Positions 1,163 to 33,194 of a stretch of 33,194 bases of DNA are shown here, piece after piece. The stretch is from the NCBI GenBank assembly GCA_009928745.1, contig SACC01000001.1, positions 1 through 33,194 of the forward strand, written 5' to 3'. The notes under the pieces are model-generated. The model was not told the origin of the DNA and did no database searches. It worked only from the letters and a program-made list of their open reading frames with translations. A program made the translations under genes and the position numbers. Numbering within the stretch: position 1 is the first letter of the stretch; every line of letters begins with the position of its first letter. The stretch comes from Clostridia bacterium (GTDB lineage: Bacteria > Bacillota > Clostridia > Christensenellales > CAG-1252).

Positions 1163-1191
1163 ATTATAACATAGCAAAAAATGACTGTAAA
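1163..1191 (-). promoter_or_regulatory. Sigma-A/sigma-70-like promoter with extended -10, placed for a leaderless or near-leaderless oxidoreductase mRNA
   Basis: Read on the minus strand: TTTACA (1191-1186), 17-nt spacer, TGt (TG at 1171-1170), TATAAT (1168-1163). Only 9 nt (TAAGTTATT) follow before ATG 1153, with no Shine-Dalgarno-like purine run in that gap. Confidence 0.45.
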
Positions 1192-3076: not shown

Positions 3077-3087
3077 AAAATATTATC

Positions 3088-3119: not shown

Positions 3120-3125
3120 AAATTA

Positions 3126-6100
3126 CTATTTACTTGCAATATAGATATAGGTGTAGATTACGAAGGTCTTTGGCGTCATGCCTTGCTGCGAATAAACCCC
3201 GTCATAGATTGTTTCGGCATCCGTTGTAGTACCCATAGTAATTGAGAAGGTTGTTTCAACAAGATACCTTGTGCCAATTTGCGCCATTGTATTGATTGCG
3301 GTAAAGTCTCCTATCGGTATTCTTGTTTGTCCGTTCATTCTGTAAACATTGCTGTTATACCAAGGCAGGTAAGTCGCCGCCGAAGAGTTGAACATTGTGT
3401 AGTCGGTGCCTAGGTTTATTCCGCCAAAAAGCGGTAAATCCGTGGTCGTCTTAACCGAGAATATATAGTTCATTTGGAATAAAGGCAAGTTCCTGATATT
3501 AAACATAGTTCCTTGCGTTACATAAAGCGTAGGTATGCTCTGAGCTGACTGAGCGCCTGCCTGCCAATAATAATTGCTGGTTGCTGTTAGCTTAGCATCA
3601 TCGTCATAGCGGTAACCTTTAGCGAGCATCACTCCCGAATTCTTATAAGACACTTCGTTTTCGTCCACATTCTCATCGGAGTTGGGCACATAAAGGTAAT
3701 GCTTATTACTTATTGCGTCGGAAATGTAGAACGACCTAGCGCCAGTTTCGTCCTTCTTGAAAATGCTTGCTACAAGACCTGTGCTTATCGGGTCAATGAA
3801 GTGAACGATAGAACTGTCGTATCCGGAAATAATCGTTTCTCCCTGTATTGCTGTGGAAGCGGCAGGATATGCCCTTCTTCCAACTGCTCTCCAATAGAGT
3901 ATACCGATTTGATATTCGTTAACCAGTTGATTTTCGTTTTCGTCCAAACCAAAGTCTACGTTCTGCAAGGATGCAGGGCTGAAGTTGTTGGCAACAACCT
4001 CTCTTTGTGAGAGCTCTCCGCCCGCTACTGTGTCAAACCTTTCCGACTTAACCGGCTTTTCTAATTTGTAATATTCGAGCGGTATAAAGTCGTTAGTATC
4101 TGTAGAGAACAAGTTGTAAGAGGTATTCATACCGAAGTACTGAATCAGGTTTTCCGGAAGAGCGTAGGTTGTTCCCTTCGGCAAACTTAGCATTCCTGGA
4201 ACGTTGCTGTTAATCCAGCTTCTTGTAGAGGTGTTAGATAACTTCCAACGGAAGGTTTGTCCGCCCTTGCCGCCCAAGGTTATCGTTGCATATTGGGCAG
4301 CTTTGTCGCCGAACGCCACAGCTCCGAAGTACCATCTGTTATAATTATTCCTATACGTTCCGCCGCCGTTAATGTTGGTAACAAAGGTTTCTTTGGCAAT
4401 ACCGTTAACTTTGTAATGGACTCTATAGCCGTAGCTTGAATCATAAACAGGGTGTCCGTTTTCTTCATTATAAACAACTTCGATATAGAAGTCAGGGTTG
4501 TTTTCTTCGGTTAAACTGCTTACTTTAGGCAATAGTATGATATCTTGAGGTCCATACGCTATAGTACTGATAAAGGCGTCTACCGCTCCTTCGGTATCAA
4601 AGAACAGCCACGGGTCTACTGCAAACTTCTTGGTATACAACTGGTCGTCTAAGCTCATGGTAAAGGAGGTCTTTCTCTCGGTATCATTAAAGTATACCGT
4701 TATTTTGCCCTGGTTTGCGCCCGTCCACAAAGCTTCTGTCTTATATTTCTTACAAGTTGCTAAGAAGTTGTTTATAGCTAAGCTGTTGTGCGGCACTGCC
4801 ATCAAAGCGTTATATTGTTCATACCCTTGTTTTGTTGTGGTATAAATCATAACGTCGTCGGGCATCTTAAGTCCGCCAAGCTGGATGAAATAATACGGGT
4901 CGATAATTCTCCAGTTATTGATACTATCGTCGTATTCTATTGCCCCGTCAACAATGGCATTCTTGTATCTGTCAGCCGATTCGTCAGAAACAAGGTCGTT
5001 TAATATATTTCTGAAATATGTGTCATAGTCTATTTCAAACCCGCTGTCATTAACAGGATTGGCAAATACAATATACTCTTCGGTTAAATTGAACATTATT
5101 TGAGCATTTTGTTGTCCTTTTGCGCCTAGTCCGTAACCGGGTATTACCATATTAAACTTAGCCTTACCGCCCTTATAGTTTAATCCTTGAGTGGTATCTA
5201 GGGTAAAGCTCATTTGAACTGCGTTGTTATATGCGTTGCCTCTATTATCTGTGCCGTTTGTTTCTTCAACGCTTAAGATATAGTTGCCGCTGCTTTCGGC
5301 TATTTGGTTGAGCGTATAATAAATAGGGTCATTAAAGTCTTCAAAGTATACACCGAAAACTAAGGTTGTAGAACTACTGAAGTGCTTTGCTATAAGCTTG
5401 CTTTCTATATTGGATTGTCCTATATAGTCATAAACGCTTATTGTGGTATCGTAGCCTATGGTTTCATTCTTAAGTATATTGGATGTAAATCCGTAGAAGC
5501 CTCTTTCGATATCTACTTTCCTGCTCAATATCTTAACGGGATATACCATCTTTTGATAAGCGTTGCCGCTGCCTATGCTTACTTCAACCTCTCCGCTGCC
5601 GCCCGAATATCTCCAGAACATATCAGCGTCGTAGAACTTAACCCCAAGTTTGTTCTCGCCCTGTTCGGTAGAAAGGTTGTAATTGATATAATACTTACCT
5701 CCCTCAACGTATCCCGGCAGAGAGCCAAACAGCACGTCGAATTCCGTCCTTTCGAACTTGAGTACGGTATCATATTGACCGCCGGCTAAATAGCCTTGCT
5801 GCGTTGCCGCATTGAAGCCTAGGTCAGAATTTACGTACTTAACAAACGGGTCAAACTCAAAGCCTTTTACCGTCGTTGTCGTACCGCCCGAAGACAATGT
5901 TATATTCTTAAAATTAGGAGCGTTGCTTGCATTAAAGCCAAAGTCGCTGATTGTACGGTTTACGTATACAATCGGTATGCTATAGGTTTGAATACCTGCA
6001 TACAAGCCTTCCTCTGCGCTGCCGAAGCTGGCCACGAGCTTGCCGGCGCCGCCACCGTAATTTATCTTGCCGCCCGACCTTCTAAGCTCTGCGCTTAGTA

Positions 6101-9100
6101 TTGCCCCACTATTGTTAACCGAGCTTACTTCAAAGAACTTGTTGTTTATATTTGTTCCGTCATAGTTTATTTCGCTGAACGTATAGCTGACTATTTCCAC
6201 CCTTTCGCCGTTGTCTAAGCGATAGTAGTCTTCTTTGTCTGCGCCATAAATTGTAGCGTTAGTAACCTTAGAGCTATAAACAACGCTGTTTTCGAACTTA
6301 ATTAAACTGCTTTCCGAACTCTTAATCAGTCCGTATTGGTCTATATAATAGATGTCCTTATTTAATCCTCCGCCAACAGCGTACTTCATATTAAGTATTC
6401 TTACCTTAATATTTTCGTCGAACTTGTCATTTAGGGTGCCGCCTTTCTTAAGAGGAGCAATATTAATATCCATTGCTTCTTTTGCACAGCTAAGCGTGGA
6501 GCCAATAGTGGCGTTCATACTCTCTGACACTTTAAGTTTTACCGTCACTCTTCTGCCTGTATAAAGGTCGGTTGTCTTAGTGGCATAGTTCGTTGCAGTG
6601 TCATAAATTGTATAATTATCAGCCCCAAGGTTGTAGGTACGGGTATAGTTATCTGCGCCGCTAGTTATAATCCTTACACTTCTGAAGTAAGTAAAGTGAG
6701 CGCTTGTAAAGTCCTCGCTATACATGTTATCGGGTGAATTATATCTTGTATCGTTATTTAATGCGTTACGCATCGTGTAAGGATTGAGAAGCAGCTCATT
6801 GGTTGCCTTGAGTTCGTTGACGCTGTCATTGTACAGCAAGCTGTCAAGGTCAATGAAGTCAACGCCATTGTAGCTGACCTGATATTTTTGTATCGTACGG
6901 TCGCGTACGACAACGCTAATAGGAATAATTTGCAATATTCTTCTGCTTATCTCATTGCCCTCGTTGTCAAGCTCTGCGTCATAAAGCTTAACATAAACTA
7001 CGTTGTTAGTGCTTTCTTTGTCAAAGACTCCGCCGGCAAGGGTCATAGTGCTTGCAAACTGAGTATAATCCCATTCCACGGGCACTTCTTTTTCTCTTAC
7101 GTTACCCTGATAGTCGATGGAAATAACAGCTCCAAGGGTACTGGGAAGGCCGACAAAGCCTTCGAAAGGTTCTATCACCAAATTGTTAAATTCTTTTGTG
7201 TTGACGTTGTAACTGAGCTGTTGATAATTAACTCCGGTCTGTCCTTCCACAACTTTAAGCATATTTACTTGCGCCCTGTTAATATAAACAGTAACTTCAA
7301 GCTCTTGTTTCAGTATGCCTTCTCCTATAGATGCAGTAACCATGTATGTTCCGCCACCTGTGCTGTAGACAATGTTTTCTATGCCTTCCCAAGCGATGGT
7401 ATTTATCTGCGTCAAATCACTTCCGCTGCCGTAAGCTACCCAATAGGTATATGCGTCAAAGTCAACTCTGTTATAGATGTCACCGCTAAGCTCAACAACC
7501 TTTTCTCCGTCCTTAATATACAAGCCGGCAACCTTTCTTGACCACAATGTAACGTCTACTATTTTTTCTGACCTTATATCGAATTCTCCGTAAATACCGT
7601 TAGGAACGCTGACTCCGATATTGAAGGATACTTTGTAGGTTGCCTGTTCGAAGTCATTTTGCGCGTAAGAAATTAGGTCTATGTCGCTTTCGTCAACGCG
7701 TACGGTAACTTCCTTGGTGGTGTATCTTACCTCGCCGTTATTGTTGTAATAGCGTGTATAAACTAGACAGCTCGTATTGTTCGCTATCAACCAGTCGATG
7801 TTTTCCGCGCCGTAAGGATCTAGGTATATATCTTCGCTTATTCCGCTTATAACATTTACTATGGTTTCCTCACCGATAATCAGTTCTAGTTCTCTGTAAA
7901 TATATCCAAAAGTAGCGTCTCCGATTACTGCCGTAGCTCTGGGATTTTGTCCGTTTGTTTTCTTTCCGGTATAATCGTAGGTTTCTATTCCTCTGAAGCT
8001 TACGCTTAAGACCTCACTTTCCGATACTCCGTTCCTTACGCCGGTAACAGTAGCTCTTGTGGGTAGTTTTGCATTAATATCATCATAAGCAGTAGCTATT
8101 TGACTGTTAAAGTTAACTATTTCCCATTGTCCTAATCCGCTATTGAATCTCTCATAAACAATACTGGATATAGAGCTGAACTTTCTGATAGCGGTATTTC
8201 TTAATACTACCGAAATAACCTGTCTGTTATTGAACTTCGTTCCGAAGGTAATACTGCTGTTTACCGTAGCCTTACTATAGAATTCGCTATTGTTGGATAA
8301 ATCAATAACTCCCTTAAGCGAGCCCGTTGTTCCGTCAACGTATCTTACCGAGAATATTATGTTTTGCTCGTCACCTAATTTGATTACCGCGGGGTCTATA
8401 GCTAGTCTGATACTTCCTTCAATATTTTCGATAGGTATGTTCTGTCCGTCGCTCGTTGCGCTTTCTATAGAGCTAATAACGGTGTTTTTCTGAATATTTG
8501 TGACAAGATACGACCCGTTGTTGTATTTTACCACTTTGGTTAAATCAATTATTATCCATCTGCTCCACCTGTTTCCAGCCTGAGTAATAGAGTCATAGTT
8601 TTTACTTCTTACAAGCACCTTAATCGAGTGGGCTCCGCTATTAGGTAAGTTATGATAGCTTATTCCGTCATCGGTATAATCGTTGTTTCCGTTGGTATCA
8701 TAAACATATTCCCAACGTACTTTCCTAAACTCGGTACCGTCATAATTCTCGCTGATTGTATCCAGTTCCCAAATGGCGTTATTAAAGTTTTCTCTGCTTC
8801 CAACCTCATCGCTGGCTATGCCGAAACGGGTTCCTGCTGTAGTGCCGTCTTCGATTACCAAGCCGAAGTTGTACTCTCTGGTGTTTACCTTATCGTCGTT
8901 ATAGTACAGTCTGAGCAAATTGTCTATGGTAGCTTCGTTATAGGTGTTTATAGATATTTGCGCATTGTAGTTGAGGTAAAGTTCTCTTATATTTACCTGT
9001 TTTACTTGAATTACCACACCTCTTATCAGCTGGTCGCCGAATAAATCATCTTTTAGCAGTACTTCAGCATAAAGAATGGTGCCGTTATAGCTCAGATTAT

Positions 9101-27200: not shown

Positions 27201-30200
27201 TTCTCTCTTTTGAATAATATTATGATTTTCATCCTCATAATTTACCCAAACTTTCTTGGTAAGCTGATTGTCTTCAAACTTAATGCCGGCTTCGTTAAAT
27301 TTTGCGCTTATATATAGATTGGCAACTTCGGCATCTACGCTGACTATGGAGTTGTCATAGAGAAGACCGAGCCTTATTTGACCTTGCTCGTGAGCTGCTT
27401 CTACTATCAATTGGGGCAAATTAGAATATGCTTCTTCGTAGTACCTATTAATCTTATCGGTCTGAGAATCATCTATATCCTCTCTATACCATATTTGTGC
27501 GCCTTCTTCTGTAAGAACGTCGCTTAATGCAACCATGATACTGTTTGATGCGTCTTTCCTCGGTTTGCCTTCGCTGTCGGTTAGTATGGTGTAAGTTTGT
27601 TCTTTGCGTAAAATAAATTTATAATCACCGTTAAGGGCGGCGGTTATTTCTTCTTTGTAGTACGTCCAAGCGGTATACTTATACTCGTTACCCGTCAATT
27701 CTTTTTGTGCGTTTGCAACATAAGTTAACAAACTGTCATTTAGATAAGCCTCGGCTTTCTCTAAGCTAAAACCATCGGATGCAACAAGCATATCCCATGC
27801 GTAAGCCTTCCATATGGTGGTAACAGACTCATTAAAGCTTCTATAATAATTTTCTTCAAAGATAAATACATCCCCGTCTATTTGGTACTGTCCTGCAGGG
27901 TCTTTGGCAATATTATTGATAGCCTTCATTTTATCGGTAATATTACGGTATTCACCTTCTATATTACCTTTTATTTCCAACCAAGACTTGCTCTTTGCGT
28001 CAAGTTCCAAACTTCCGTTGGCTGAGTAATGTCTTAAATAAATAGCGTTATATTCAGCCTTATCGTCTTCCGACCACATATAATTCTTTGTAAAATACTC
28101 AAATGCTAACTTTTGGATATTAAGCAGGCGATTTGCCGCGGGAATATCGGGAAGCGCCGCTACTGCGCTTGTTGCGCTCAAATACACATCGCTTAAAGCC
28201 GTCAGCTTGGTATATACGTCTTCCAAATAAGCTTCCAAAGCCTTACCCTTTGCAAAATAAAGGGTATATTCCATTGACATTGCCGAGGTTTCGGCATCAA
28301 TGGCATCGTTGTCGTTCTGTTTATCTTTCAGCTCGCTTATTTCATCGGAAATCAGCTTCTTATATAAATCCCATGCTTGTATCTTCTTTTCTTTTGTTGT
28401 ACCCGGTGCGGTCTGCGTTTCCAAAATAATACCCGCTCTCGTGTATTCCTCATCGGAAAGACTTTCCAAAAGAGCATCCCACGCGCGCGACTTATCATTA
28501 TAGTTTTCTTCCAATACCTCGTCCATTAGGGTAAGAATTACGTCTTTTTTGTACTGCTCGTCTTGAAGCTGTCCAATGATTATTTCTTTTACTAACTGCT
28601 TAAATGCGCGATTGTTCAAACTCTTAACGTCGTTGAATGCCTCGTTAAGCAATTTCACCAAAACGTTGGCGGTAGCGGTAATGGTAAAGCCGTAAGTATT
28701 GCCGATAACGCCGCTGATAAAGTCCTCTAAGGGAGTTTCGGTAATTGTTCCGGGAGCTGCCGAAGCAAGACCGGAATTATTTGACAACTCAAGATTTTTA
28801 TTAACGGCATATTTTAGATACAATGCATATTGCATATAATCGTAATCCGTTGCCATAGAGGTATTAACCACGGGAGCGGCGGGACTTTCTCCCTCTTCCT
28901 CTGTGTTATTGCCAAGTAATTTGCCTAAGTTGTCCATAACTTCTTTGGCGGTATTTTGGAAGTCTACTATTTTAATTCTTCCTACGTTAAATGCCGATAA
29001 ATCCAAATAAAGGGTCAAAAACTCGTCGATTCCGTCGGTTTCTTTGACCAAATAGACTCCTATAATCAGCGCTTCGCTATAATATCCTGCTTCAACAGAA
29101 GTATTATAAAGCTCCAAATAAGCTTCTATGCCCGACGCGCTAAGAAGACCGAGAATATCTAAGGAAAGCTCGGGATTTTCTAGTTTCGCCGCGTTATAGG
29201 CGGAAATTGTCCCGACTAGCTGCATCAAATTAGCTTTTAATTCCAATCTGAAGGTAACGTTGGCGTATACAGATTGTATTACGTTAAGTATAACGTCTAA
29301 TGCAAAGCTGTCGTCTTCAAGTAGAGCCCTGAGCAAATCTCCAAAATTGATACTCGTCATATCCATTTCGGTTTCTGCGGTGTCCTCGCCCTCTGCTCCT
29401 AAATTCAACTGTCCTTCAAAAAATACCTTAAAGTCCGAAGTCCAATCCTTATCTATTATTGTATAGTAATCAACATATTTACCGTTTTGCAAAATTTTCT
29501 CTCTAATCGACAAGGATAACGGGTCGGTAAGCGATAACTTAGGATATTCTATGCTAAGACCAAGATTAAACAAGCCCTCTAACTGCAGGTCTACTCCCAC
29601 AAGGTTTTCACCGAGAGCATTGATCGTTAGATTAGGAGTATATCTATTGAAATATCCTTCGATATCTATGCCAAAAGTAGCTAGCAAGGAATACAGAGCG
29701 GCTCCTGTTACTTCTAGCAAAATAACTGAAGTGTTTGCGCCCTCTCTTTGGGTGCTTATGCTGAGTATAATTTCCTTAGCAATGGCATTTGCCGCGGCGT
29801 TATTTAGTCCCGCTACATCATTTCCTGCCGCATCTGAGGGTTCTGTCTCCCCGCCGCCAGTTATCAAATCTCCTAAGTGTATGCCGAACGCTTCGCTTAA
29901 AGCAATAATAATTGCGCTGACATTGTGTAGCTTAATAGGTTCAACGCCCAAGAACTTTAAGGAAATATAAACGTCTGCAACACCGTCCGCGCCTACTACT
30001 ATATATAGTGATAATACATTGCCAAGATAGTAGTCGCCTGCTAGTCCGTACATTTCGTCCCAGAACTTACCATTTCTTTCGGCTTCGGAAAGGTCGGAGT
30101 AGAAAGTAAAGAACTCTCCCTGCTCCAATTCCATCATTTTTTGATAGCAATAATATCCGTCGTTAATAACAAGTTCGTCTATATATTGAGTGCTTCCCGG

Positions 30201-33185
30201 AGTGGGATTTTCCTGAAGAAGTCTGTTCTTCATGGCCTTCCATGCAAGGTCCTTATTATAATTAAACTCGGCAAGTATATTTTGCATATACTCCCTTCTT
30301 ATACTAAGTCCATCATACAATACCTCTTGATTATATTTCGAAGTCAAATTGAGGTATAGCTCCACGTTCTTCAGGTCTTTTAGGGTAGTTAAATTTACAT
30401 TAGCGCTGATATTAAAGTATGTCGCTTGCGAAAATACTTCATCTATTGCCACGTCTAACTGCATTCCTATTTCAGGGTCGCGGTTATCCAGCCAATAATT
30501 AGTAAACATCTTGACAGCGTAGTCAAAATTCCAATTGGTGGCGACATCGGACAGTTCAAAAGAGGCTTTACCTCCCCAGCTTAAGCCAACGGTTGTAAAC
30601 TCTTCTACTTCTGCCCAATCTACGTTGTTTATATCGTTAGCGTAATCAATAACGGTATCGGTAAAGGATATATCAATATTATGCAAAGTAATACCCATTT
30701 CCGTTCTATGATCTTCAAATGTGGATACTCTGCCTTCTTCGTCAAGATAAACGACCGCTGTTACTCCCAAATCTCCTGTAAGATTAAGGTTAAGCCTGAC
30801 TCCGAAATCAATTGCGCTGAGCTCTTCCTCTAGGTCAAGTCCCGCCAGTGCGAAAACCGTTATGAAAGAGGATTTTGTCAACGCTATACCTATATTGCCT
30901 TCCAAGAATAAAAGGTCTATATATGTACGTAAATCTATGCCTTCTGCTTCGGCATTAGAAGCCGCTGCGCCTAAGGCGCGAGTATATGCGGCGTTTAATG
31001 TCGCCGCGGAAGCCGGCTCTTGCTCGGGTTCTTCTTCTACGTCGATACCCACAAACTGTCTTAAAGCTTTGGTAAGCGAGACTAGGAATGTAGAATCAAA
31101 CACCTCTGTTATTCCTGTAACAACACTATTTACGTTGCGCAAAACAACGTCGCCGATGTTGAATATATTGGTGGAAACATATACCTCTCCGGTAAGCTTG
31201 GAAGCATTATCGTCAATATTACTTCCGTCGTATATTAAGGTTAATACCTTTGTTTCTCCGTCATTAAGCTTGTTTTGAGTTAAGGTGATTTTGAACTTAC
31301 TCTTATAGAAATTGCTGAATGCAATCCAAGCCTCAACCTTTATATTTAGACTGTCGTTCATTTCTCCAAAGAATTGGAGAAGTATGCTCGTACCCATATC
31401 GTTTAGGTCGATAAGAACAGAACCGCTTACAAGTAAATCCCAAGCAACTGCCGAGAAAATAACGTCTCCGGGAACTGCGTTTGCATAGTCCTCTCTTTCA
31501 TCCTTTTTTTCTTTTATCTCATTTTCCGCAGCAATAAAACGTTCGTTCATTTCACTTCTTTGAGCATCTGTCAAACTGTCTTTATTGTAATATTCCGACC
31601 ACGCCAAAGCTTTGAGAGCATTTTCCGTCATAGAAGTACCTCTGTTGGCTTCTACTATTTGCTCATAATGTGCTTTTAGATCGGCATTCCTAAATTCGGA
31701 ATTGCTGAACAAAGAACTAATGGCATCGGTCAAATCGTAGTCATTACGGTTGGTTGTGTTGCCGTCAGACATGGAGTTCTTAATAAACAACGCCGCTTCC
31801 ACCGAAACATATATAGCGTCGGGAACGCCGTCCGTTGCTCCTTCGGGAAGATAGGTGTTGTTACTCGATACTCTATAATTAGGACGCTTTGCAGGGTCAA
31901 CGCTTACACTTATATTACCTACGCTTAGGTCTATATGGTATACGCTTGCTAAGCCCAAGGATAAAGTTACGTCCAAACCGTTATTCATATCCAAGTCAAG
32001 TTCCAAACTGTCTATTGTGATAAAGTCGGTAATCTTGGCAAACCCAGCCATGTTAAGTACAACTCTGATTGCCGCTTCGGCCAGTTTAACCGAAACTTTA
32101 CTGTAAGCATATAATATTTCTAAAGAAATCTCGGTATTATTTTCAATTAAAGTGCTGGCATGGTTAATTGTATAACCTTCGTATCCGCTCTGCCTGGGAC
32201 TGAACGCATCGGTAACTTCCTGTAAAGTCGCCGGCGAAGAAGAATTTGCCGCATAAGAGGGATTATTTATTACATTGCCGTCGGCATCGTAATAGGTAAG
32301 CGATGCGGCATTTATGGGATTTATCACGGCATAAGCAGCCAATACTTGCCTTATTCGATAGTATGTTACCGCTTTTATTTCCTGCTCAGTTACATTCCTT
32401 GAAGTATATCTAGTTTCAATTTCTTTATTTAAGTTTTCTTCAAAAGCTTGTTCATACCTTATTTGATAATCAGCGCTTTGGCGAATAGCCGATGAAGTTG
32501 CATTCTTATATATACCTGCGTACAAGTTGTCTTTGTCGGCTCTAAGCTCGTCAATAACTACTTGCGCGATACGGGTTTGCAGAGTAGAGTAAGCGGTGGA
32601 ATTTACATAAACGGCTTTAAGATAATTTTTAATTTCCGCAACGGTGGCCACTATTTCGCTATCCATTAAAGCCTTAATTTCTCCAAGAATACCAGTCTGT
32701 TTATAGGTGTTTTCCCATATTTTTTCGTACCTTGCGGCTATTTCTTTATAGTAACTGTAAGCATTTGCCTGCAATTCGTTTAGTAGCATTTTTTCGTCAA
32801 ACTCATAACTTTCGTCATCTTCGGGAATTCCGCTGTCTGCTCTGTCTTTTGCCTCAGCCAGGTCATAAACACTTATTTTTAACACGTTTCCATTGCCTTG
32901 CTGCATTGGATTGATAAACGCCACAAGAATGTTATTGTTGTAAATATTTATTACTCCGCTATCGTTAATTTCGAAAATCCTTGCGGTGTTTTTCAGCGTC
33001 ATTTCATTTTCAAAATCGGTAAAATTGAAATTGTTGCTTACGTTATTGTAGTTATAAAGATAAATAAAACCATCATTACCCACCAAATACTTATAGTTGG
33101 TAATAGGATAAGATCTGGAATAATCTTTGTAAAAATTGTCAAAGAAATAACTGAGAGTCTGCTGTTTCATAACAGAATCCATCAA
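3126..33185 (-). CDS. Giant mosaic protein of 10,019 aa with unknown function; probable cell-surface fibre or adhesin-like protein; N-terminus possibly incomplete
   Basis: The 30,060-nt frame has no stop in AT-rich DNA and ends at TAG 3128-3126. The largest competing ORF anywhere inside it is 217 aa. Composition is coherent and domain-like segments occur along the whole length. The track start is TTG 33185 followed by ATG 33182-33180. The three in-frame codons upstream to the window edge (AAG CGT AAT) contain no stop. Confidence 0.9.
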   Translation of the reverse strand: MMDSVMKQQTLSYFFDNFYKDYSRSYPITNYKYLVGNDGFIYLYNYNNVSNNFNFTDFENEMTLKNTARIFEINDSGVINIYNNNILVAFINPMQQGNGNVLKISVYDLAEAKDRADSGIPEDDESYEFDEKMLLNELQANAYSYYKEIAARYEKIWENTYKQTGILGEIKALMDSEIVATVAEIKNYLKAVYVNSTAYSTLQTRIAQVVIDELRADKDNLYAGIYKNATSSAIRQSADYQIRYEQAFEENLNKEIETRYTSRNVTEQEIKAVTYYRIRQVLAAYAVINPINAASLTYYDADGNVINNPSYAANSSSPATLQEVTDAFSPRQSGYEGYTINHASTLIENNTEISLEILYAYSKVSVKLAEAAIRVVLNMAGFAKITDFITIDSLELDLDMNNGLDVTLSLGLASVYHIDLSVGNISVSVDPAKRPNYRVSSNNTYLPEGATDGVPDAIYVSVEAALFIKNSMSDGNTTNRNDYDLTDAISSLFSNSEFRNADLKAHYEQIVEANRGTSMTENALKALAWSEYYNKDSLTDAQRSEMNERFIAAENEIKEKKDEREDYANAVPGDVIFSAVAWDLLVSGSVLIDLNDMGTSILLQFFGEMNDSLNIKVEAWIAFSNFYKSKFKITLTQNKLNDGETKVLTLIYDGSNIDDNASKLTGEVYVSTNIFNIGDVVLRNVNSVVTGITEVFDSTFLVSLTKALRQFVGIDVEEEPEQEPASAATLNAAYTRALGAAASNAEAEGIDLRTYIDLLFLEGNIGIALTKSSFITVFALAGLDLEEELSAIDFGVRLNLNLTGDLGVTAVVYLDEEGRVSTFEDHRTEMGITLHNIDISFTDTVIDYANDINNVDWAEVEEFTTVGLSWGGKASFELSDVATNWNFDYAVKMFTNYWLDNRDPEIGMQLDVAIDEVFSQATYFNISANVNLTTLKDLKNVELYLNLTSKYNQEVLYDGLSIRREYMQNILAEFNYNKDLAWKAMKNRLLQENPTPGSTQYIDELVINDGYYCYQKMMELEQGEFFTFYSDLSEAERNGKFWDEMYGLAGDYYLGNVLSLYIVVGADGVADVYISLKFLGVEPIKLHNVSAIIIALSEAFGIHLGDLITGGGETEPSDAAGNDVAGLNNAAANAIAKEIILSISTQREGANTSVILLEVTGAALYSLLATFGIDIEGYFNRYTPNLTINALGENLVGVDLQLEGLFNLGLSIEYPKLSLTDPLSLSIREKILQNGKYVDYYTIIDKDWTSDFKVFFEGQLNLGAEGEDTAETEMDMTSINFGDLLRALLEDDSFALDVILNVIQSVYANVTFRLELKANLMQLVGTISAYNAAKLENPELSLDILGLLSASGIEAYLELYNTSVEAGYYSEALIIGVYLVKETDGIDEFLTLYLDLSAFNVGRIKIVDFQNTAKEVMDNLGKLLGNNTEEEGESPAAPVVNTSMATDYDYMQYALYLKYAVNKNLELSNNSGLASAAPGTITETPLEDFISGVIGNTYGFTITATANVLVKLLNEAFNDVKSLNNRAFKQLVKEIIIGQLQDEQYKKDVILTLMDEVLEENYNDKSRAWDALLESLSDEEYTRAGIILETQTAPGTTKEKKIQAWDLYKKLISDEISELKDKQNDNDAIDAETSAMSMEYTLYFAKGKALEAYLEDVYTKLTALSDVYLSATSAVAALPDIPAANRLLNIQKLAFEYFTKNYMWSEDDKAEYNAIYLRHYSANGSLELDAKSKSWLEIKGNIEGEYRNITDKMKAINNIAKDPAGQYQIDGDVFIFEENYYRSFNESVTTIWKAYAWDMLVASDGFSLEKAEAYLNDSLLTYVANAQKELTGNEYKYTAWTYYKEEITAALNGDYKFILRKEQTYTILTDSEGKPRKDASNSIMVALSDVLTEEGAQIWYREDIDDSQTDKINRYYEEAYSNLPQLIVEAAHEQGQIRLGLLYDNSIVSVDAEVANLYISAKFNEAGIKFEDNQLTKKVWVNYEDENHNIIQKREAITIAEYIQQVQTDENGEFAVFDKNFGYVYAALEIDFGWDLEENTEYDFTTLINTLLSGMNFNLEVQGQGIDLSPVLAILNDISNYYRIIMEARFNLFDLFDGNLSTTDLSITLYALDSEGNIKQRDGVNDVVLQFVLGSEVDPTTGEETNYIYLNAERFNIQRIYIKNAVEYIRGLFGTVFASNGAYPLGIDIDEEASVSKIVVAAAMAAKIANASDGENAQVNLDLLKSGLSIQIAANAIYAILGFLNLGGMDNIKSMITQVGEPSVTLDIFSVATYGGEVPGIFTDNDRDLIRVGLRFESVNNKGISTGRGISLNLSIHTIELDLDQEKYITFDEASLEKDENGDPVGYVVVENALPKISISTTLYLEFDLGATEGKDLSKDPVYSLLEQTLSGLITSLAEVLLTLNNTHKITIALDVLADLDFGNGEDNNFLEHLKSGSTLRIGLRIYRTAEGMYFDQNKEWAVITYYNKNLYVDISKLNSDKVYVANIADSLFGAQDSPAAASWESIAKDLRFAANNNVNLGLSANITNDGFYLIVKKAAISALLKMFGFGGFDLFNDAALQIYLKGTEVSENVRSFAFGLQIAMSDDPLNVGTTQMKPVLGITVRLNGLYVGFEASGTSVSGVEEYRELTRIDTIYFKTKIMINLTDEKGIYNLEELLYYILSMTDIDLTAQGFTRQIAPILELINDVDSIVYVDISLTVNIKSILDDLQAKVYLNVLNKSTGEITQIAGISYIRGDLFIDASGLSNNENFYVGKVKITNVMGLISSITGGDTQEAAELRERIAGIENYYNGERPQNIAGATQGIGTLAIIGDVIKGVAINLTQGAIFSLVKYFMGVDLAEKIVVVEEVINSVTTPALSLSIDPSITILIQLDLPSKEIDDADSILMSELLNNEFVYWYQNNVSATSIIYDKVWAVLVENTLLYQNYNLSDAQKLSRVNAWLTDTATDAPAIMSRIRARLTDFSETQAKLFLYDYVAIECYFSEALATTYGFDYSLDNERDINQKNIKLELFYSNYLKEVEWDKVYETITDLEVKNELNVLLATYGSKALAFDACVSLGREAGVSMSEGYNGNTYKKKIDSIRNMFGSGSDSVSYTYLVTNLFRNLYARQSAWFKYLYEQIYYADSAGGIKVYTAKYDELYVYQKALAYERYYEETTDYYQKALMLSAESFARAKYSKASEIEIKAYAYDKFKQDLLLGSNAINNALIEDDVNILKYVVWNNLAKAEFYSDEKLALLGVNRDDVKIIGNILTTTSKTLQSYNLSKGATMSAYQEGGFTYDLVFNSISALITAAGSYTIDATMSIRAIKAAIVRKLFLEESIDYSLILEGVTQSSSEYDLSVAYNTLISRYYTKLTTLLQDFSEATAYINSYGADFSLKQLSFDELINLEMESIYKPIDLPASEFAINNGATQETDPKAELNWTSNDLFKLVIAWLVLSLDTTDEVLQGYISSANSYVSNVNNIGNPITLSDNYGGDGYLADCYIAVRAFAYVLKRYDISTFSNISVINEIAQGNYSNVPMEAIKALLEKYKGVDLEHNISIATALKITSDICDTFDETKEELNTQNRAAIDVAVKAVLLKSQVVDMNITGLNQSITDGYLFDIRSYSFYNAYLAFNQYVEIKGLTAAVVEAQNYAASYFGSYDNAIEEVISFGYLLKSLVGEEFTLLNQIYNNFALGNYSCLTEAVWLSSMSDYVGDSTNIAEVTAAVNRISKLFGYLSNEQYIKKYAWDKWMRYSSTLERITELNNILKSCLFERLYSDIQEIINSTVISSANSVIDSTLTSLVAKSKEYVISNIDTYLDFINEFREDAETLYSDILDESLIIVDINEYASANVTLELEKKINAENKAFLLDNLFLRSANLELWEEYYDAASYNSFHTWYYGVDGYNDRLEVLLDANFEAVSENIFSVLPARLSSINLSDNYYSNIVNLINDSIGMWSTILMPVIVDNERQPLLDMISDLNNAKTTLDEIEKVKYRIEDDEYGNPQYSEEYGQALATIEASLGYCPTVEDVNTVTDIDIAFGYAAKLLAYIKAVYQAANNYSEASPEKTAENIRINNLALATYGVVLIPDYCNNYRNILETQLFAKLSKLKYITEELSIVNSASVQDQLNAGGKTYYQAIYYIYGRMENILMLNAEVSKKDYRELWYELIEKCESYEFSLSEEHSLTMAQSKQLFLTTAKELFQDGKIYKITDIESFIEGVDNNSGEYASLKQVVLNDSSMQESMLLALKELLITNLTDSGIVKMAAAYREQFALSFTGGLAPKISNFNEWVDNYDLRYYEIMAYNMDTIVSALADNIVYNSQLDVIAMLSGIVTNYDGFVLALRNHLYNIYTVEFGGEEITGNYDLSDVVSAIDLMISQGGFAVPTAYKETVNFCRSISNIIVAAEDGGLGVLTNEDKRELFASIIALSYNATTADFENENVLLNVELISILNSVWASYKAVVNTYFMEYISELGLFDEFAALAYTNILTLSEDLAEIVAASAALSTTNGRTEDYLRMRDMIETYFNGNYTVSGINTAFRAIFNTYSLGGSIYYIQASNAYANALASDFDDLLALLIANDSDEIALHNYISTLDVSTAKAKAEALLLVLDYIANTVNNVTLSLDSKELYDDIVIAVNVLGTTKDSLDLSIWNNYFADYIGLYPQVAEKLTLKANLGQGYSAEQILEMLSFVEKSQYLKEYLLLEEAASITELMSVTNSGLIAERAFTMIYDEAMARKNNRALLSLGIGIIGEDSSLLVDIKSNYINESGETVSSIKDVLTDEEKAEYTEYADLTLRINVNASFSFSYNQGDLNITDILDLISLPIDLDLDISFLESSMIYVTIQGQIGINFAALFSGNSSEVAESVVGELMLTYYIIEHDVNGENVRFEQVILHIWIYGGNIYGQAEIFDSKLNVAVPVNLGNIVLGMFGANEDEEINALNSFIMQSYHGYTDEEAQNAMTPFEQMFAVVSNAESTLGEAIEALIRISSKETALIITIDMLVEIVKVFVGQDSLTGDMKDLLNLIMTTGYLGIDYSDDFSLNLNLHKNSPEDSETVGYDVNLTLLNDTLISTNIDTFNALFNGIKGDYDNGFFDDLYELGTDIEEGADLISVLREIIGARVTASLSIYLESDVLKTILDWSKLFDVQEMDTYFQLRFLRNAKGLIRIDIALDIDIEQEAFDFSIRMYNLSGENFANIYFVGGLLNHDGEGEGILDPKFYFDCGESEHDKLMLTPKTGYDFLGINFVQLFFDILKSDTVYEIDGASYSSYLYSQLLYAEDENEGGQPEEEESMFSNLDWGKIVESITFGKGSLGIKFSSAIIQAIMSSFFNFNFDEFGNIQLEIDLINNSLSITVPVDASIKDTNDNVINDSKINYSFSISNVNISFGQKSNFFGEAIYTKFANYQDIADYVWVAEVNSSLLVNDDFNTILNMSQLSNSIIRGLGLNILSSEDSLNIELTFALRTYIDFSDISNMRLELDIGYGDGNGNVTKRILSITFIGTAGGGTVYIDLRGLGYSLLSLSGVDLGSIVKGLLSDLASGFAPEQDEVIEPQNASSISNDISEAEERAQRYNTIADMEFGQNMLLFIYDYDEVSIAITGGLLMALLGNLDTILTRSALEKAEEENGPLTDEEREEILKKGTLPAAILNLPMFSYLKIGRVDSDGDGVSEVSGIQLVMDESKQFSIRYNIRKSYSHLVKKNNLSSVVDMTIVNDYDAEECTSIDQIKNLHLSLQLDITLQTLKPDGTKSEVVEDLEEFLEKLLELEEDTVNFDMQDTMMTFTLNFDLAIDLVNYNNSILVLEVYYNDDIMLAVYYVNKTVYVDLSTLGLFKTSLNGIDLGSILSKLLGGIDIVSEFSGANGIDVSALLTEMLNFDTAEGKTLQLVSHRKISYEEEITKESRLAELRASLISDNLSGRFGKMSDQEVIDIISEGLSEIREEFPMTDDEYNKELTSLSQAVGIGGTGSDNTSTDGGKKSAAIVNILLGNKGITINPSAGVFKLLLGMDIPAFEKISISMNTYEGLNNLSLSVKVDSQGNRLGLSIPEKGLKIKINDGVGEAAGGRDKELTDIISLPESLNDYGGVNGLILSSGGISMNMANLVNSVLDGIFLDDLTLYVEKRTDYWTRKDVFTKYPAVHKTGPNNYADEDDGYDGAESVAQGIIQIVKLIKIAQIVSNIATAAMGNPVGWWQIIQTGYKLISNLRSGATAIFEDDTNEAKFFRNRYARGKLEINKSMDNVIDAAIKTPSYKQGDISVHVENHTLVITLGMSISISILGINLDVKSFLQGDIEGFISKGIAIATIVIFPDTMFPDTDTAGETGRFYGIIKDTDGAPVEGATVEITSGSGIVNKATTDKDGYYYFLELPITDHITGKQEVSRVEKYLNNNYDVDPEAEAGFVYNNIIYRKVGAFYYALNDRSTVTIYKEGYTSYSENDLLIVPKETSAAINCSQVLAKANVERKKTITLSGKTYYMINPDQSMSEITNLSAFGGASIIIDGGLTRAVSSLTTATKGDYSVTVDEYTDLRDYYTNLAKSYHSMLGKLSGYKFEGFVYTIGGSRVSIDINLLDTYIASASDGSTLQIDVIFSKVEVTSVTFIGYVRYYDSEIGEYVVPSSSDFEFWISLNEHTIGVTDFYDLEPENYSINVDEAGKFSFTAPEFLVGGNYIFKLRSKVYQNFNLTEGGTVIGDSLDASHTTSTMGIAEIVSVSDDRTASYNVEINLTKRPKHWSETVTESASMIQKLRIRLGADIIDSEPHDDGDNGEQQYDYSYLDDTSNLVYEGSHIADRYNTYTYIEAWIDSNMITNLLLSVQNMFFGMLGITGVTMGQTVSASDISLGAYTEEEDFDLTQYTDEELAEKGEGELLDKFVKRYRGRYNEEDDIKIYNYIYQEKGAYMQAAQSALAKEGAGLVHYLLQEFALSNLKNIAVDILGERIGVNDLIALLVYSPTTLSIIPLIGGLLKTVGEQVGAVLEEASLLIAHVLPFQVSYNIFSTMDLPSSPLKPYQDLLTDQTLSSTATVTLEDGTTYSRTLYREARTYDLSVYAKITLNSDSEGGYIDRISLFINGSSFSKNSEKIALREENEMPSYNAMMQGDWDYAYWQKNGRVGSFYSVVKENAYTINMTGLEADEDPDDYRDRGVQLYYHNVSDNRQELGLPEYETTKTTGQTYEMITNSNSETIERMYFEERIESDDVTKRSYTYKTDATATYEIKSCDIETKTIVSAGVEDTVAKVFMEQFMATSNYKSYAISDTYYLHPLTGEKVIYSRVFIYDVNNNPKEDIYQEVDIDLNGMDIRQVADTTFNGEFWHISLEPVNAVWTKEIRTLPTKIVFHDPFDLTDFTVEGGTWAYSDGYLGVRRNNDSSISIIDALPNRYFATFTDGSSKGTQGMKITWNIDALGTSAQGTNGETVYLQGYIGNAICSTVKVIIEPFVIDVDQAKAQIISDISSIVINPRDFDAEEFLASLPLVFNYNYSNTDNEGNVREKTYIFNDLKWSLDYQTVNSIRRFTSLKYNSPFADEQPYIDLSFRSFGYDSEGNELSSNTEFTDVKIPLTVKNYELVKVESEVENTVGGIVNDATVPSGYHGVLTINPLYNNNPLTTVTEITSFDSVTVKCGDVVQNWEIIEGSLKLLKLNGKTLRDYKSLSTKAEDYAISYDITDGTGFVQTVKILVKILSSDIQSGASYFYDGETKIYIENNKLITPYDTGSDLSPIDTINDSYMKRLGLSEEIYVVYTSGYFEKAVLGQYTQANKTYVSYNEATGKLEANGVVAIMGSGFSYSIPYMSYNQNQDATIYASIGQNGYSKLDMDLILTEIMLSNLSLRYSLNNAKEKAYDSIYEKLTKFEKLELSAILNEKENNKARAWDAWYEKYSDAANDTYNNNTTLYLDTVLLEAKLSYTTLSYTAAKSLAYEKLIADNSNINQSNNKISVDALNEVLEEMRTEHFGASNTSLQAYTWEKWYNDYSRKSLSINRSVERRVAKSVESKSVSGSDLSEITMEDLGSYINVGFDGVEKIEIIVDPITGESYNKTVLDLKKTQIIWKVDLEHINDNLSYNGTILYAEVLLKDDLFGDQLIRGVVIQVKQVNIRELYLNYNAQISINTYNEATIDNLLRLYYNDDKVNTREYNFGLVIEDGTTAGTRFGIASDEVGSRENFNNAIWELDTISENYDGTEFRKVRWEYVYDTNGNNDYTDDGISYHNLPNSGAHSIKVLVRSKNYDSITQAGNRWSRWIIIDLTKVVKYNNGSYLVTNIQKNTVISSIESATSDGQNIPIENIEGSIRLAIDPAVIKLGDEQNIIFSVRYVDGTTGSLKGVIDLSNNSEFYSKATVNSSITFGTKFNNRQVISVVLRNTAIRKFSSISSIVYERFNSGLGQWEIVNFNSQIATAYDDINAKLPTRATVTGVRNGVSESEVLSVSFRGIETYDYTGKKTNGQNPRATAVIGDATFGYIYRELELIIGEETIVNVISGISEDIYLDPYGAENIDWLIANNTSCLVYTRYYNNNGEVRYTTKEVTVRVDESDIDLISYAQNDFEQATYKVSFNIGVSVPNGIYGEFDIRSEKIVDVTLWSRKVAGLYIKDGEKVVELSGDIYNRVDFDAYTYWVAYGSGSDLTQINTIAWEGIENIVYSTGGGTYMVTASIGEGILKQELEVTVYINRAQVNMLKVVEGQTGVNYQQLSYNVNTKEFNNLVIEPFEGFVGLPSTLGAVISIDYQGNVREKEVPVEWDYTQFASTMTLAGGVFDKESTNNVVYVKLYDAELDNEGNEISRRILQIIPISVVVRDRTIQKYQVSYNGVDFIDLDSLLYNDSVNELKATNELLLNPYTMRNALNNDTRYNSPDNMYSEDFTSAHFTYFRSVRIITSGADNYTRTYNLGADNYTIYDTATNYATKTTDLYTGRRVTVKLKVSESMNATIGSTLSCAKEAMDINIAPLKKGGTLNDKFDENIKVRILNMKYAVGGGLNKDIYYIDQYGLIKSSESSLIKFENSVVYSSKVTNATIYGADKEDYYRLDNGERVEIVSYTFSEINYDGTNINNKFFEVSSVNNSGAILSAELRRSGGKINYGGGAGKLVASFGSAEEGLYAGIQTYSIPIVYVNRTISDFGFNASNAPNFKNITLSSGGTTTTVKGFEFDPFVKYVNSDLGFNAATQQGYLAGGQYDTVLKFERTEFDVLFGSLPGYVEGGKYYINYNLSTEQGENKLGVKFYDADMFWRYSGGSGEVEVSIGSGNAYQKMVYPVKILSRKVDIERGFYGFTSNILKNETIGYDTTISVYDYIGQSNIESKLIAKHFSSSTTLVFGVYFEDFNDPIYYTLNQIAESSGNYILSVEETNGTDNRGNAYNNAVQMSFTLDTTQGLNYKGGKAKFNMVIPGYGLGAKGQQNAQIMFNLTEEYIVFANPVNDSGFEIDYDTYFRNILNDLVSDESADRYKNAIVDGAIEYDDSINNWRIIDPYYFIQLGGLKMPDDVMIYTTTKQGYEQYNALMAVPHNSLAINNFLATCKKYKTEALWTGANQGKITVYFNDTERKTSFTMSLDDQLYTKKFAVDPWLFFDTEGAVDAFISTIAYGPQDIILLPKVSSLTEENNPDFYIEVVYNEENGHPVYDSSYGYRVHYKVNGIAKETFVTNINGGGTYRNNYNRWYFGAVAFGDKAAQYATITLGGKGGQTFRWKLSNTSTRSWINSNVPGMLSLPKGTTYALPENLIQYFGMNTSYNLFSTDTNDFIPLEYYKLEKPVKSERFDTVAGGELSQREVVANNFSPASLQNVDFGLDENENQLVNEYQIGILYWRAVGRRAYPAASTAIQGETIISGYDSSIVHFIDPISTGLVASIFKKDETGARSFYISDAISNKHYLYVPNSDENVDENEVSYKNSGVMLAKGYRYDDDAKLTATSNYYWQAGAQSAQSIPTLYVTQGTMFNIRNLPLFQMNYIFSVKTTTDLPLFGGINLGTDYTMFNSSAATYLPWYNSNVYRMNGQTRIPIGDFTAINTMAQIGTRYLVETTFSITMGTTTDAETIYDGVYSQQGMTPKTFVIYTYIYIASK
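12360..12840 (-). other. Two hydrophobic segments inside the giant ORF; candidate membrane-interacting or buried helices
   Basis: MITNLLLSVQNMFFGMLGITGVTMG lies at 12781-12840 and LIALLVYSPTTLSIIPLIGGLL at ~12360-12430. Both are 22-25 residues with no charged side chains, separated by an acidic helical stretch. No TM predictor was run. Confidence 0.3.
13210..14282 (-). other. Three tandem prealbumin-fold / carboxypeptidase-regulatory-like (CarboxypepD_reg, Cna-B-like) domains within the giant ORF (from aa 6302)
   Basis: The first copy is clear: GRFYGIIKDTDGAPVEGATVEITSGSGIVNKATTDKDGYYYFLELP...TVTIYKEGYTSY (14282 down to ~13935). It fits the G.v.D..G.P..GA.V......g....TD..G.Y.f..l...Y.v...k.GY pattern. 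Two weaker copies follow: TITLSGKTYYM...GGASIIIDGG...KGDYSVTV (~13690-13870) and VTFIGYVRYYDSEIGEYV...DEAGKFSF...GGNYIFKL (~13210-13480). Confidence 0.6.
14880..19019 (-). other. Giant ORF region III (aa ~4723-6100): four more copies of the ~300-aa beta-rich module
   Basis: Signatures: NIYGQAEIFDSKLNVAVPV (18481-18540), VGGLLNHDGEGEGILDPKFY (17581-17640), TVYIDLRGLGYSLL (16681-16740), TVYVDLSTLGLFKTSLNGIDLG (15741-15800). Linkers: ENEGGQPEEEES (17341-17400), GFAPEQDEVIEPQ (16561-16620). Copies 9 and 10 are the most alike: TVYIDLRGLGYSLLSLSGVDLGSIVKGLLSDL versus TVYVDLSTLGLFKTSLNGIDLGSILSKLLGGI. Confidence 0.6.
19020..24559 (-). other. Giant ORF region II (aa ~2876-4722): ~1,840-aa block with helix-favouring composition and no recognisable domain
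   Basis: The block runs from ...LDLPSKEIDDADSILMSELLNNEFVYWYQ (24481-24560) to ...LIAERAFTMIYDEAMARKNN (19021-19080). It is rich in A, L, E, K, Y, N and S. Runs of Gly or Pro are almost absent, as are the alternating beta patterns seen in the flanking regions. The secondary-structure call is by eye only. Confidence 0.5.
24560..33185 (-). other. Giant ORF region I (aa ~1-2875): six diverged copies of a ~300-aa beta-rich module, with helical inserts
   Basis: Module signatures, each verified by back-translation: GEVYVSTNIFNIGDVVL (31141-31200), DVYISLKFLGVE (29941-30000), TLYLDLSAFNVG (28981-29040), NYIYLNAERFNIQRIYI (26701-26760), NLYVDISKLNSDK (25741-25800), DLFIDASGLSNNENF (24941-24990). Most are followed within ~25-45 aa by an acidic or Pro/Ala linker: EEEPEQEPASAA (~30995-31045), GGGETEPSDAAGN (29821-29870), NNTEEEGESPAAPV (28861-28920), AQDSPAAAS (25681-25720). 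Confidence 0.6.
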
Positions 33186-33194
33186 ATTACGCTT

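Follow-up and report, generated by a model that had tools for sequence, protein, structure and literature searches.

We examined a 33,194-nucleotide (nt) stretch of contig SACC01000001.1 (positions 1 to 33,194 of assembly GCA_009928745.1, from a Clostridia bacterium of the GTDB lineage Christensenellales, CAG-1252), hereafter the window. Its minus strand contains the 3' part (30 kb) of an intact gene whose product exceeds 1.1 MDa; a gene for a smaller surface protein and a truncated oxidoreductase gene follow (Table 1). The giant protein is a member of an unstudied family of giant, probably lipid-anchored cell-surface proteins that is found only in uncultured gut and digester Clostridia.

The giant frame and its conservation

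Counted from the TTG codon at 33185, the open reading frame (ORF) comprises 10,019 amino acids (aa) (3126..33185 in the ORF listing, minus strand). Translation from the window edge showed, moreover, that the bases between this TTG and the last position of the window, 33194, are also free of stops, so the frame extends to the edge and the gene is cut at its 5' end. The earlier note on this DNA, made from the sequence alone, had described a single uninterrupted frame at 3126-33185; the frame is indeed uninterrupted, although it lies on the minus strand, which had been left unstated, remains open to 33194 and is truncated. No ribosome-binding site was found near the candidate starts TTG 33185, ATG 33182 and ATG 33170 or in the nine bases upstream, and the first residues encoded in the window (KRNLMDSVMKQQTLSYFF...) are not a signal peptide. 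The two other minus-strand frames contain 851 and 970 stops over 11,064 codons, so that an open frame of such length cannot be due to chance; the largest competing ORF, as the earlier note had it, encodes 217 aa (6888..7541, plus strand).

The product encoded within the window has a mass of 1,119 kDa, in agreement with the earlier estimate of about 1.1 MDa, and is strongly acidic (isoelectric point (pI) 4.4; 1,410 acidic versus 766 basic residues), with only 20 cysteines in 10,022 aa. The G+C content is even along the window, at 38-42%. The nucleotide-level repeats that the earlier note had failed to see are indeed lacking: Tandem Repeats Finder reported a single array of 29 nt in the window, and the dispersed repeats amount to three chance-like two-copy families of 30-38 nt with 71-77% identity.

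The closest relative that we identified, locus L020 (JAEXAB010000001.1, a 516-kb contig of a Bacillota metagenome-assembled genome (MAG)), is 83% identical over 7,015 aa and colinear with aa 2437-9447 of the giant protein, with a handful of gap positions only; another locus, L021, is 66% identical. Given that even the closest relative is only 83% identical, the giant protein is a new sequence rather than an existing database entry. In the comparison with L020, the proportion of nonsynonymous differences (pN) is 0.099 and that of synonymous differences (pS) is 0.714, the synonymous sites being near saturation, and the Jukes-Cantor corrected ratio (dN/dS) is ~0.05. The constraint is roughly uniform across 500-codon bins: a large helical region, the alpha block described below, is slightly less conserved (72-78% aa identity), the bins covering aa 5501-6500 are 89% identical, and aa 9001-9447 are 88% identical, the last ~575 aa lying beyond the L020 locus. 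The low pN and high pS, uniform along the overlap, show that the gene is real, intact and under strong purifying selection throughout, as befits the genuine coding frame proposed at the outset.

Modules, helical insertions and the C-terminal regions

When the translation was inspected by eye, two motifs were seen to alternate strictly, namely, eleven copies of the amphipathic motif B (S.I.LT..A...LL..FG.D) and ten copies of motif A ([VI]Y[VL]D[LI]S.LG...K). Self-comparison of the protein with BLAST yielded only one weak pair, and an iterated profile was needed to reveal the repeats, in line with the extreme divergence at the protein level that had been claimed for them. A hidden Markov model (HMM) that was seeded on the orthologues of module 9 and iterated four times converges on ~285 positions and detects 321 instances in the data set; 10-11 of them fall in this protein (E 1e-10 to 1e-71), every complete homologue has 13-15, and the repeats are less than 20% identical to one another. 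In the complete homologues, the tandem modules extend from aa ~70-300, soon after the signal peptide, to aa ~4,050-4,370. HHalign aligned aa 22-698 of our protein with aa 720-1373 of the homologue P0004 (probability 98%), an offset which implies that the window begins inside the module array and that the true protein is longer. By extrapolation from such distant relatives, some 700 residues, including a signal peptide, would be expected upstream of the window.

Table 1. Features of the window, with the gene cassettes found at homologous loci (last row; coordinates of those loci)
Feature	Residues (aa)	Position	Strand	Basis or remark
Giant ORF		3126..33194	minus	10,022 sense codons plus stop at 3126-3128; 5' end open at window edge
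Tail of upstream module, then helix-rich stretch	1-362	32109..33194	minus	HHalign to P0004; sequence reading
Beta modules 1-6	363-761, 760-1150, 1152-1458, 1490-2225, 2223-2511, 2527-2818	24741..32108	minus	Alternating motifs B/A; module HMM, E 1e-10 to 1e-37
Module 7, N-terminal part	2812-2884	24543..24761	minus	Motif B at aa 2822; colinearity with P0004 to residue 2834
Alpha block (~1,824 aa)	2885-4708	19071..24542	minus	Helical insertion within module 7
Module 7, C-terminal part	4709-4960	18315..19070	minus	Module HMM positions 70-272, E 3.9e-23
Beta modules 8-10	4971-5283, 5290-5564, 5577-5879	15558..18284	minus	Module HMM
Conserved junction	5940-6300	14295..15377	minus	Family alignments
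CarboxypepD_reg (prealbumin-like)	~6305-6390	14025..14282	minus	PF13620
Conserved central region	6560-7300	11295..13517	minus	Invariant columns in A5 and A8
Degenerate Ig-like/Big_4-like array	7301-10022	3129..11294	minus	Pattern LP..V....G....V.W, by eye
Downstream MBG_2 surface protein (604 aa)		1262-3076	minus	Signal peptide; one Pfam MBG_2 domain
BON + FAD-dependent (DAO) oxidoreductase gene		2-1159	minus	Cut by window start
Upstream cassette at homologous loci		L001 4286-9647; L002 4351-9700; L039 1404-7706; L041 1732-7659

The order of regions put forward in the earlier note, that is, beta modules, an alpha block, further beta modules, a prealbumin-like junction and a tail of immunoglobulin (Ig)-like domains, was borne out, except that the alpha block is not a separate region and instead lies inside module 7. 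In P0004-type proteins, the two halves of this module are contiguous (residues 2834|2835), and the block is absent from P0004, P0005, P0006, P0008, P0010 and P0012; it is present in P0002 and in the clade of loci L018-L029, and L012, L014 and L016 have only ~440 aa at this position. As judged from these alignments, the alpha block has been inserted into module 7 in one lineage and is restricted to the closer clade. Smaller helical inserts are found in module 1 (~65 aa) and module 4 (~380 aa), and other family members carry different inserts, including a Listeria-Bacteroides repeat. Self-comparison of the alpha block revealed only weak internal duplication (probabilities 79% and 55%), which rules out a regular helical repeat of the Ebh kind. 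A helical motif, ..A[WY][DT].[WLM]... (for example, SRAWDALLESLSDEEY and KARAWDAWYEKYSD), marks the helical inserts in the modules, the alpha block and the Ig-like tail (aa 531, 984, 1571, 1607, 1799, 1842, 3192, 3732, 7845 and 7939), and the inserts that carry it may be of common origin.

The module itself matched no Pfam family in any of 12 module arrays, nor did its consensus at E<=10. An AlphaFold2 model of module 9 alone, built from 43 orthologous and paralogous modules, has a mean predicted local distance difference test score (pLDDT) of 74 and a predicted TM-score (pTM) of 0.54, with pLDDT of 85-95 in the C-terminal half; it contains some twelve strands, of which several span 10-13 residues, together with three amphipathic helices, and leads into a disordered linker that is acidic and rich in alanine. 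Foldseek found no significant neighbour of this model in PDB (best E 0.47, TM-scores <=0.35) or in BFVD (best E 0.014, probability 0.18). Below threshold, the Foldseek hits of this model and of a larger one (aa 5290-6400) comprise half-barrel lipid binders, namely, the ApoB100 beta-barrel (E 0.017, probability 0.20), LprG, MucB, LmcA and DUF1849, as well as OspA, which we regard as a lead only. A groove protein of the AsmA/TamB type was considered and rejected, there being no AsmA/DUF490 match in the 12 arrays or the consensus and no such protein among the Foldseek neighbours in PDB.

The junction that follows the array is made up of the last motif-B unit, the motifs GLNNL (aa 6007) and EKRTDYW (aa 6103), and a hairpin of amphipathic helices that starts at aa 6143; in the comparison with L020, few parts of the gene are conserved as well as this junction, and it was the source of the motifs used in the family-wide searches. 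The earlier note had called this junction hydrophobic, but as a transmembrane anchor it is unconvincing: the Kyte-Doolittle maximum is 1.9 over 19 residues and falls on beta-like or charged stretches, and no peak along the protein resembles a transmembrane helix.

The CarboxypepD_reg domain next to the junction gave the only Pfam match of the protein, which was scanned as ten 1,000-aa tiles (aa 6309-6351, 39.7 bits against a cut-off of 32.3); SdrD_B and SpaA scored below threshold on the same stretch. Since this domain covers less than 1% of the protein, it does not define it. Nothing in NCBIfam or PHROGs matched the giant protein, and a search of PDB sequences with both halves as single queries and with two family profiles returned only a marginal match to the prealbumin domain of carboxypeptidase M. 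The library scans detected no SLH, CWB2 or other wall-binding or S-layer domain, and the LPXTG, HExxH, RTX, YD, Walker A and lipobox patterns are either absent from the product encoded in the window or present as single chance matches, with one such match each for GGxGxD and a YD-like pattern. The view that the protein bears no signature of a known giant-protein family and none of the LPXTG, HExxH, RTX or YD motifs thus stands, with the single CarboxypepD_reg domain as the exception, and profile searches did not place most of its length in any characterised adhesin or toxin family. In particular, adhesins of the type I secretion system (T1SS) RTX kind (LapA/SiiE), Rhs/YD toxins, two-partner secretion (TPS)/FhaB proteins and nonribosomal peptide or polyketide synthases (NRPS/PKS) were rejected as candidates, their domains being absent in Pfam and NCBIfam scans, and so was a giant of the Ebh/Embp type, no tile of the product encoded in the window having matched FIVAR, GA or YSIRK.

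The central region contains the family-invariant motifs K.RS..Y, HWS...RIRLGADI.D, YIEAW and IVFHDPFDLTDFT..GGTW, which persist among proteins that are otherwise ~25% identical and are possible functional sites. The short motifs K.RS..Y, HWS, RIRLGADI.D, YIEAW, FHDPFD..DFT..GGTW and LPNR were located at aa 6652-6781 and 7312-7376 (window ~12852-13241 and ~11067-11261). A profile of the central region had no match among PDB sequences.

The remaining ~2,700 aa appear to form a degenerate array of Ig-like domains that includes one helical insert of ~200 aa near aa 7800-7990. A seeded HMM for these repeats recovered its own seeds only, and any count of the Ig-like domains is, as a result, approximate. 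When 13 homologous C-terminal regions were compared with Pfam, CarboxypepD_reg was found in 11, Big_4 in four (best E 2.9e-6), SpaA in two, and SdrD_B and Big_1 in a single region each. At its C-terminus (...YIYIASK), the protein has a beta strand and no anchor motif, and all homologues likewise end in an Ig-like strand without such a motif. An LPXTG-type C-terminus is absent, the sole match being an internal LPNSG at aa 8183; a sortase-anchored adhesin was accordingly rejected, the C-terminus having no combination of LPXTG, hydrophobic segment and basic tail.

Homologous giants and their gene neighbourhoods

An exhaustive phmmer search of 1.84 billion cluster representatives yielded 24 that match aa 4950-6149. 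Six of these are complete proteins, 7,125-7,879 aa long, that align colinearly with aa ~355 to ~9,960 of our protein at 22-37% identity (BLAST); in P0004, the corresponding region is aa 1145-7691, and the other members are similar. The family motif Y.DLS.LGLF is found here at aa 5805, in addition to EKRTDYW in the junction. A pattern scan of 185,579 species genomes, one per species, detected 26 homologous loci, all in MAGs of uncultured Clostridia, many of them labelled Christensenellaceae, Christensenellales or Christensenella sp. and one or more Candidatus Stercoripulliclostridium; the sources indicated by the isolate names are rumen, roe-deer rumen and other metagenomes, and the 26 include no cultured Christensenella with a species name. 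For nearly all of these loci, the fetched stretch (mostly ~20 kb) is taken up by one frame that is open on either side; in two of the 26, a stop bounds the frame at one end. Seven further loci came from JGI metagenomes. A metagenome scan with the first 400 aa, aimed at the missing N-terminus, found no relative. No phage record out of 50,697 matched in tblastn and no relative was found among IMG/VR viral contigs; together with the silence of PHROGs and the cellular nature of the flanking genes, this led us to reject a giant of phage or mobile-element origin.

The giant protein is therefore no orphan: homologues of 7,100-7,900 aa and more are already public in NCBI, JGI, ENA and Logan data, under the sole names 'hypothetical protein' or 'carboxypeptidase-like regulatory domain-containing protein' (Clostridia/Bacillota MAGs), and none has been characterised. 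MFA5448907.1 (7,809 aa), MCL2629995.1 (6,732 aa) and HKL74311.1 (partial, 5,267 aa) are colinear with our protein over almost the entire length at 22-46% identity and share with it the module array, the CarboxypepD_reg domain, the Ig-like tail and the junction motifs Y.DLSGLGLF and EKR.DYW. By contrast, neither the 1,824-aa alpha block nor the remaining helical inserts are present in most of these unnamed homologues, which measure 7,100-7,900 aa. By alignment, then, the protein is a colinear member of an unnamed family of Christensenellales-type giant lipoproteins (P0004/P0010-like).

The assignment to lipoproteins comes from the N-termini of these relatives. All seven complete family N-termini available, those of the six complete homologues and that of a 1,846-aa ORF at locus L005, contain a signal peptide and a lipobox (LVGC, IAAC, LLSC, VVAC, MFAC, LIGC and, in the L005 ORF, IAGC), the pattern expected of bacterial lipoproteins, the substrates of Lgt and Lsp, being [LVI][ASTVI][GAS]C. 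By homology, our protein would be lipidated as well. The L005 ORF is evidently part of a split giant, ending (4443-9983) 18 nt before a 6,720-aa ORF (10001-30163); at L004, a run of 100 N plus a frame change lies just upstream of the giant (~7316-10001). These split giants in public MAGs probably represent assembly or sequencing breaks, or else recent pseudogenisation.

In the window, a hairpin with a 16-bp stem and a T-run (3086-3121, minus strand) is located five bases past the stop codon of the giant gene, and its 3' arm, GAGGAGGGGGAAGG, is the Shine-Dalgarno sequence of the next gene. Since the arm doubles as a ribosome-binding site, termination or structure could gate the translation of the downstream surface protein. 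Besides its MBG_2 domain, this 604-aa protein has additional repeats of the YDG type and, close to the C-terminus, a membrane segment; by eye, its tail resembles the Listeria-Bacteroides repeat, which was not detected by Pfam. A run of 11 G at the start of its gene (3036-3046, minus strand) encodes GGGG if translation starts at TTG 3076 and falls in the Shine-Dalgarno region if the start is GTG 3028; it is a candidate slipped-strand phase-variation tract. An exact database look-up of this neighbour (604/588 aa) returned no record, it has no counterpart beside the homologous giants, and no downstream synteny with their loci was found. The last gene in the window, for a flavin adenine dinucleotide (FAD)-dependent oxidoreductase, is preceded by a strong, near-consensus promoter with an extended -10 element (1163-1191, minus strand; 11/12 matches) and has no obvious Shine-Dalgarno sequence.

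As a rule, the gene that comes after the giant at the homologous loci encodes a further large surface protein, the neighbours elsewhere in the family including Big_2/Big_3/RCC1-like and LRR/Flg_new proteins and Transglut_core lipoproteins. Upstream, four of six contexts share a cassette that consists of genes for a Transglut_core lipoprotein (~950-1,050 aa, with Big_2), an unknown protein of 283 aa, a ROK protein and, usually, a PIG-L deacetylase. The giants beside this shared cassette are only 23-47% identical to each other, and the arrangement suggests that the cassette may be functionally linked to the giant, for example, through sugar handling, processing or cross-linking. Among the homologues examined for context, none had genes of a dedicated secretion system next to it.

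Interpretation and comparison with other giant proteins

We favour the interpretation, to which we assign a probability of roughly 0.6, that the protein is anchored by an N-terminal lipid and forms a very long, acidic fibre or adhesin on the cell surface; the fibre geometry and the binding function are inferred. The full protein would start with a lipoprotein signal peptide lying outside the window, would be exported by Sec and, after lipidation at the lipobox cysteine, would be tethered to the outer face of the cytoplasmic membrane. Proximal to the anchor, ~14 tandem alpha+beta modules of ~285 aa, each presumably an extended antiparallel sheet against which amphipathic helices pack, would make up the wall-proximal part, broken in this lineage by large helical insertions. 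Further outward, the conserved junction, one CarboxypepD_reg domain and the conserved central region would lead to a distal, ligand-facing array of roughly 25-30 degenerate Ig/Big_4-like domains with a free C-terminus, and this distal part would most likely bind glycans, host material or partner cells, the protein acting as an adhesin or an aggregation fibre. A location on the surface is supported by the CarboxypepD_reg, Big_4, SpaA, SdrD_B and Big_1 domains in the C-terminal third of family members, by the acidic pI and the scarcity of cysteines, and by the neighbours that encode large surface proteins or lipoproteins.

Several observations weigh against this interpretation. Big_4 is below threshold in the protein itself, having been detected in only four of the 13 relatives, and nothing in the protein could be recognised as an adhesive or lectin domain. 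Structural neighbours of the module fold were not found, which leaves it without a tie to known stalk domains; a larger AlphaFold2 model, covering aa 5290-6400 and based on 18 family sequences, is too poor to interpret (mean pLDDT 53.6), its Foldseek list being non-significant. The protein's own signal peptide and lipobox lie outside the window, the estimate of ~700 missing residues resting on distant homologues. Finally, purifying selection that is uniformly strong, the alpha block included, exceeds the apparent need of a passive stalk and is unlike the diversifying pattern that is often seen in adhesins.

This last point is also what lends some weight to a different, appreciably less probable scenario, in which the protein is a structural component of the envelope, its lipid-anchored array and Ig-like tail serving as a wall-spanning scaffold, a sheath or an S-layer-like coat that is needed for envelope integrity. 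Strong and uniform selection over 7,000 aa (pN 0.10 versus pS 0.71), the lack of an adhesive domain and the retention of one giant ORF across genomes so deeply diverged that their giants are only 23-47% identical would all fit such a role, and the Transglut_core lipoprotein, ROK and PIG-L genes upstream in four of six contexts could reflect wall-linked processing or cross-linking. However, none of the SLH, CWB2 or other wall-binding and S-layer domains was detected; the occurrence in only 26 species genomes, all of them MAGs, seemingly argues against a general envelope requirement in the order; and a 1.1-MDa monomer would be an unusual building block for a lattice.

More speculative, and in our opinion rather unlikely, is the idea that the ~285-aa modules represent a new fold class, strung 14 times from a lipid anchor as an envelope-spanning machine of a hitherto unknown kind, for example, a continuous amphipathic sheet or groove that would bind or conduct hydrophobic molecules, or an essential sheath. 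If so, the helical insertion and the invariant motifs (RIRLGADI.D, FHDPFD..DFT..GGTW) would be functional sites rather than spacers. The narrower proposal that the modules are half-barrels with a helix lid that bind lipids or other hydrophobic ligands, similar to LolA/LprG/MucB or ApoB, so that the array would bind, store or convey hydrophobic compounds at the surface, seems improbable. The long amphipathic strands and the amphipathic helices of each module, the appearance of ApoB100, LprG, MucB, DUF1849 and LmcA in the Foldseek lists and the putative lipoprotein nature of the protein itself are weak leads in this direction. Nevertheless, all these structural matches are below significance, with TM-scores <=0.35, the 12 arrays and the consensus (E<=10) have no AsmA, TamB, LolA or LppX match in Pfam, and amphipathic strands would be equally expected in ordinary sandwich domains. 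It is highly improbable that we are dealing with a secreted or contact-dependent toxin or an effector-delivery protein of the polymorphic toxin or Rhs/CdiA type, of which only the very large size and extracellular nature are reminiscent: Pfam, NCBIfam and motif scans found no Rhs/YD, RTX, TPS or toxin domains, PHROGs had no match, the C-terminal region, as far as L020 covers it (to aa 9447 of 10,022), is as conserved as the rest and not polymorphic (88% identity in aa 9001-9447), every family member ends in an Ig-like strand, and the next gene encodes a 604-aa surface protein rather than a small immunity-like product. That the frame, read from a single window, is an assembly artefact, a pseudogene or a chance opening can hardly be entertained in view of the colinear giant ORFs in independent assemblies from many studies, the 83% identity with L020 with a handful of gap positions over 7,015 aa, the near-saturated synonymous sites against few replacements, and the lack of nucleotide repeats able to cause mis-joins.

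Giant surface proteins as a kind, large genes in gut-metagenome Clostridia and the deposited, unnamed homologues are already known, and this protein sets no size record. New are the definition of the family, the ~285-aa module without a match to a curated domain or structure, the 1.8-kaa helical insertion, the apparently reversed polarity of the anchor (an N-terminal lipid, by homology) and a constraint that is unexpectedly even over the length of the gene. Modules and conserved motifs that libraries and structures do not explain account for more than half of the protein, which makes it a target for structural and functional discovery and a candidate for a new Pfam family, and an N-terminal lipid anchor, if homology is a guide, with a free Ig-like C-terminus would be an unusual polarity for a giant surface protein of a monoderm. 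Clostridia of the Christensenellales type occur widely in animal guts and anaerobic digesters, and most of them are uncultured. A coding sequence of 20-30 kb for one strongly constrained protein must matter to how these cells meet their surroundings; they might use it, for example, to attach to host glycans or plant fibre, to flocculate or to make contact with partners such as methanogens.

Among characterised giants, parallels are offered by Ebh of Staphylococcus aureus and Embp of S. epidermidis, of which Ebh is built from near-identical FIVAR/GA repeats and has a YSIRK signal and a C-terminal membrane anchor. Like our protein, as we interpret it, these are Sec-exported surface proteins of Bacillota (Firmicutes) of ~1.1 MDa with long tandem arrays that include helical segments. 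By contrast, the repeats here are less than 20% identical, FIVAR, GA and YSIRK have no match, and the anchor is predicted to be an N-terminal lipid, leaving the C-terminus free. In Gram-positive fibrillar adhesins whose stalks are Ig-like, it is typically the C-terminus that is anchored, by sortase.

Another giant surface protein with long runs of Ig-like beta-sandwiches is the 7,651-aa adhesin of Mobiluncus mulieris, which has 51 repeat Ig-like domains with intramolecular cross-links (PMC10619420). In our protein, the polarity would be the reverse, with an N-terminal anchor by homology, the Ig-like domains are highly diverged, and more than half of the length is taken up by a different, unclassified module. 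The Giant1-5 proteins of Apilactobacillus kunkeei, also Bacillota, are extracellular, 3,000-8,000 aa long and described mainly through structure prediction, with an N-terminal beta-solenoid related to the serine-rich-repeat adhesins (PMC12863079); the giant described here is set apart from them, by description, in that we saw no beta-solenoid domain or solenoid pattern in it. Finally, Clostridia of mammalian gut metagenomes encode giants of 10,000-30,000 aa with RCC1, Listeria-Bacteroides repeat, YG and dockerin domains (bioRxiv 10.1101/2023.11.21.568195), and our protein, albeit without these recognised repeats, is akin to them in taxonomic class, type of habitat and size range.

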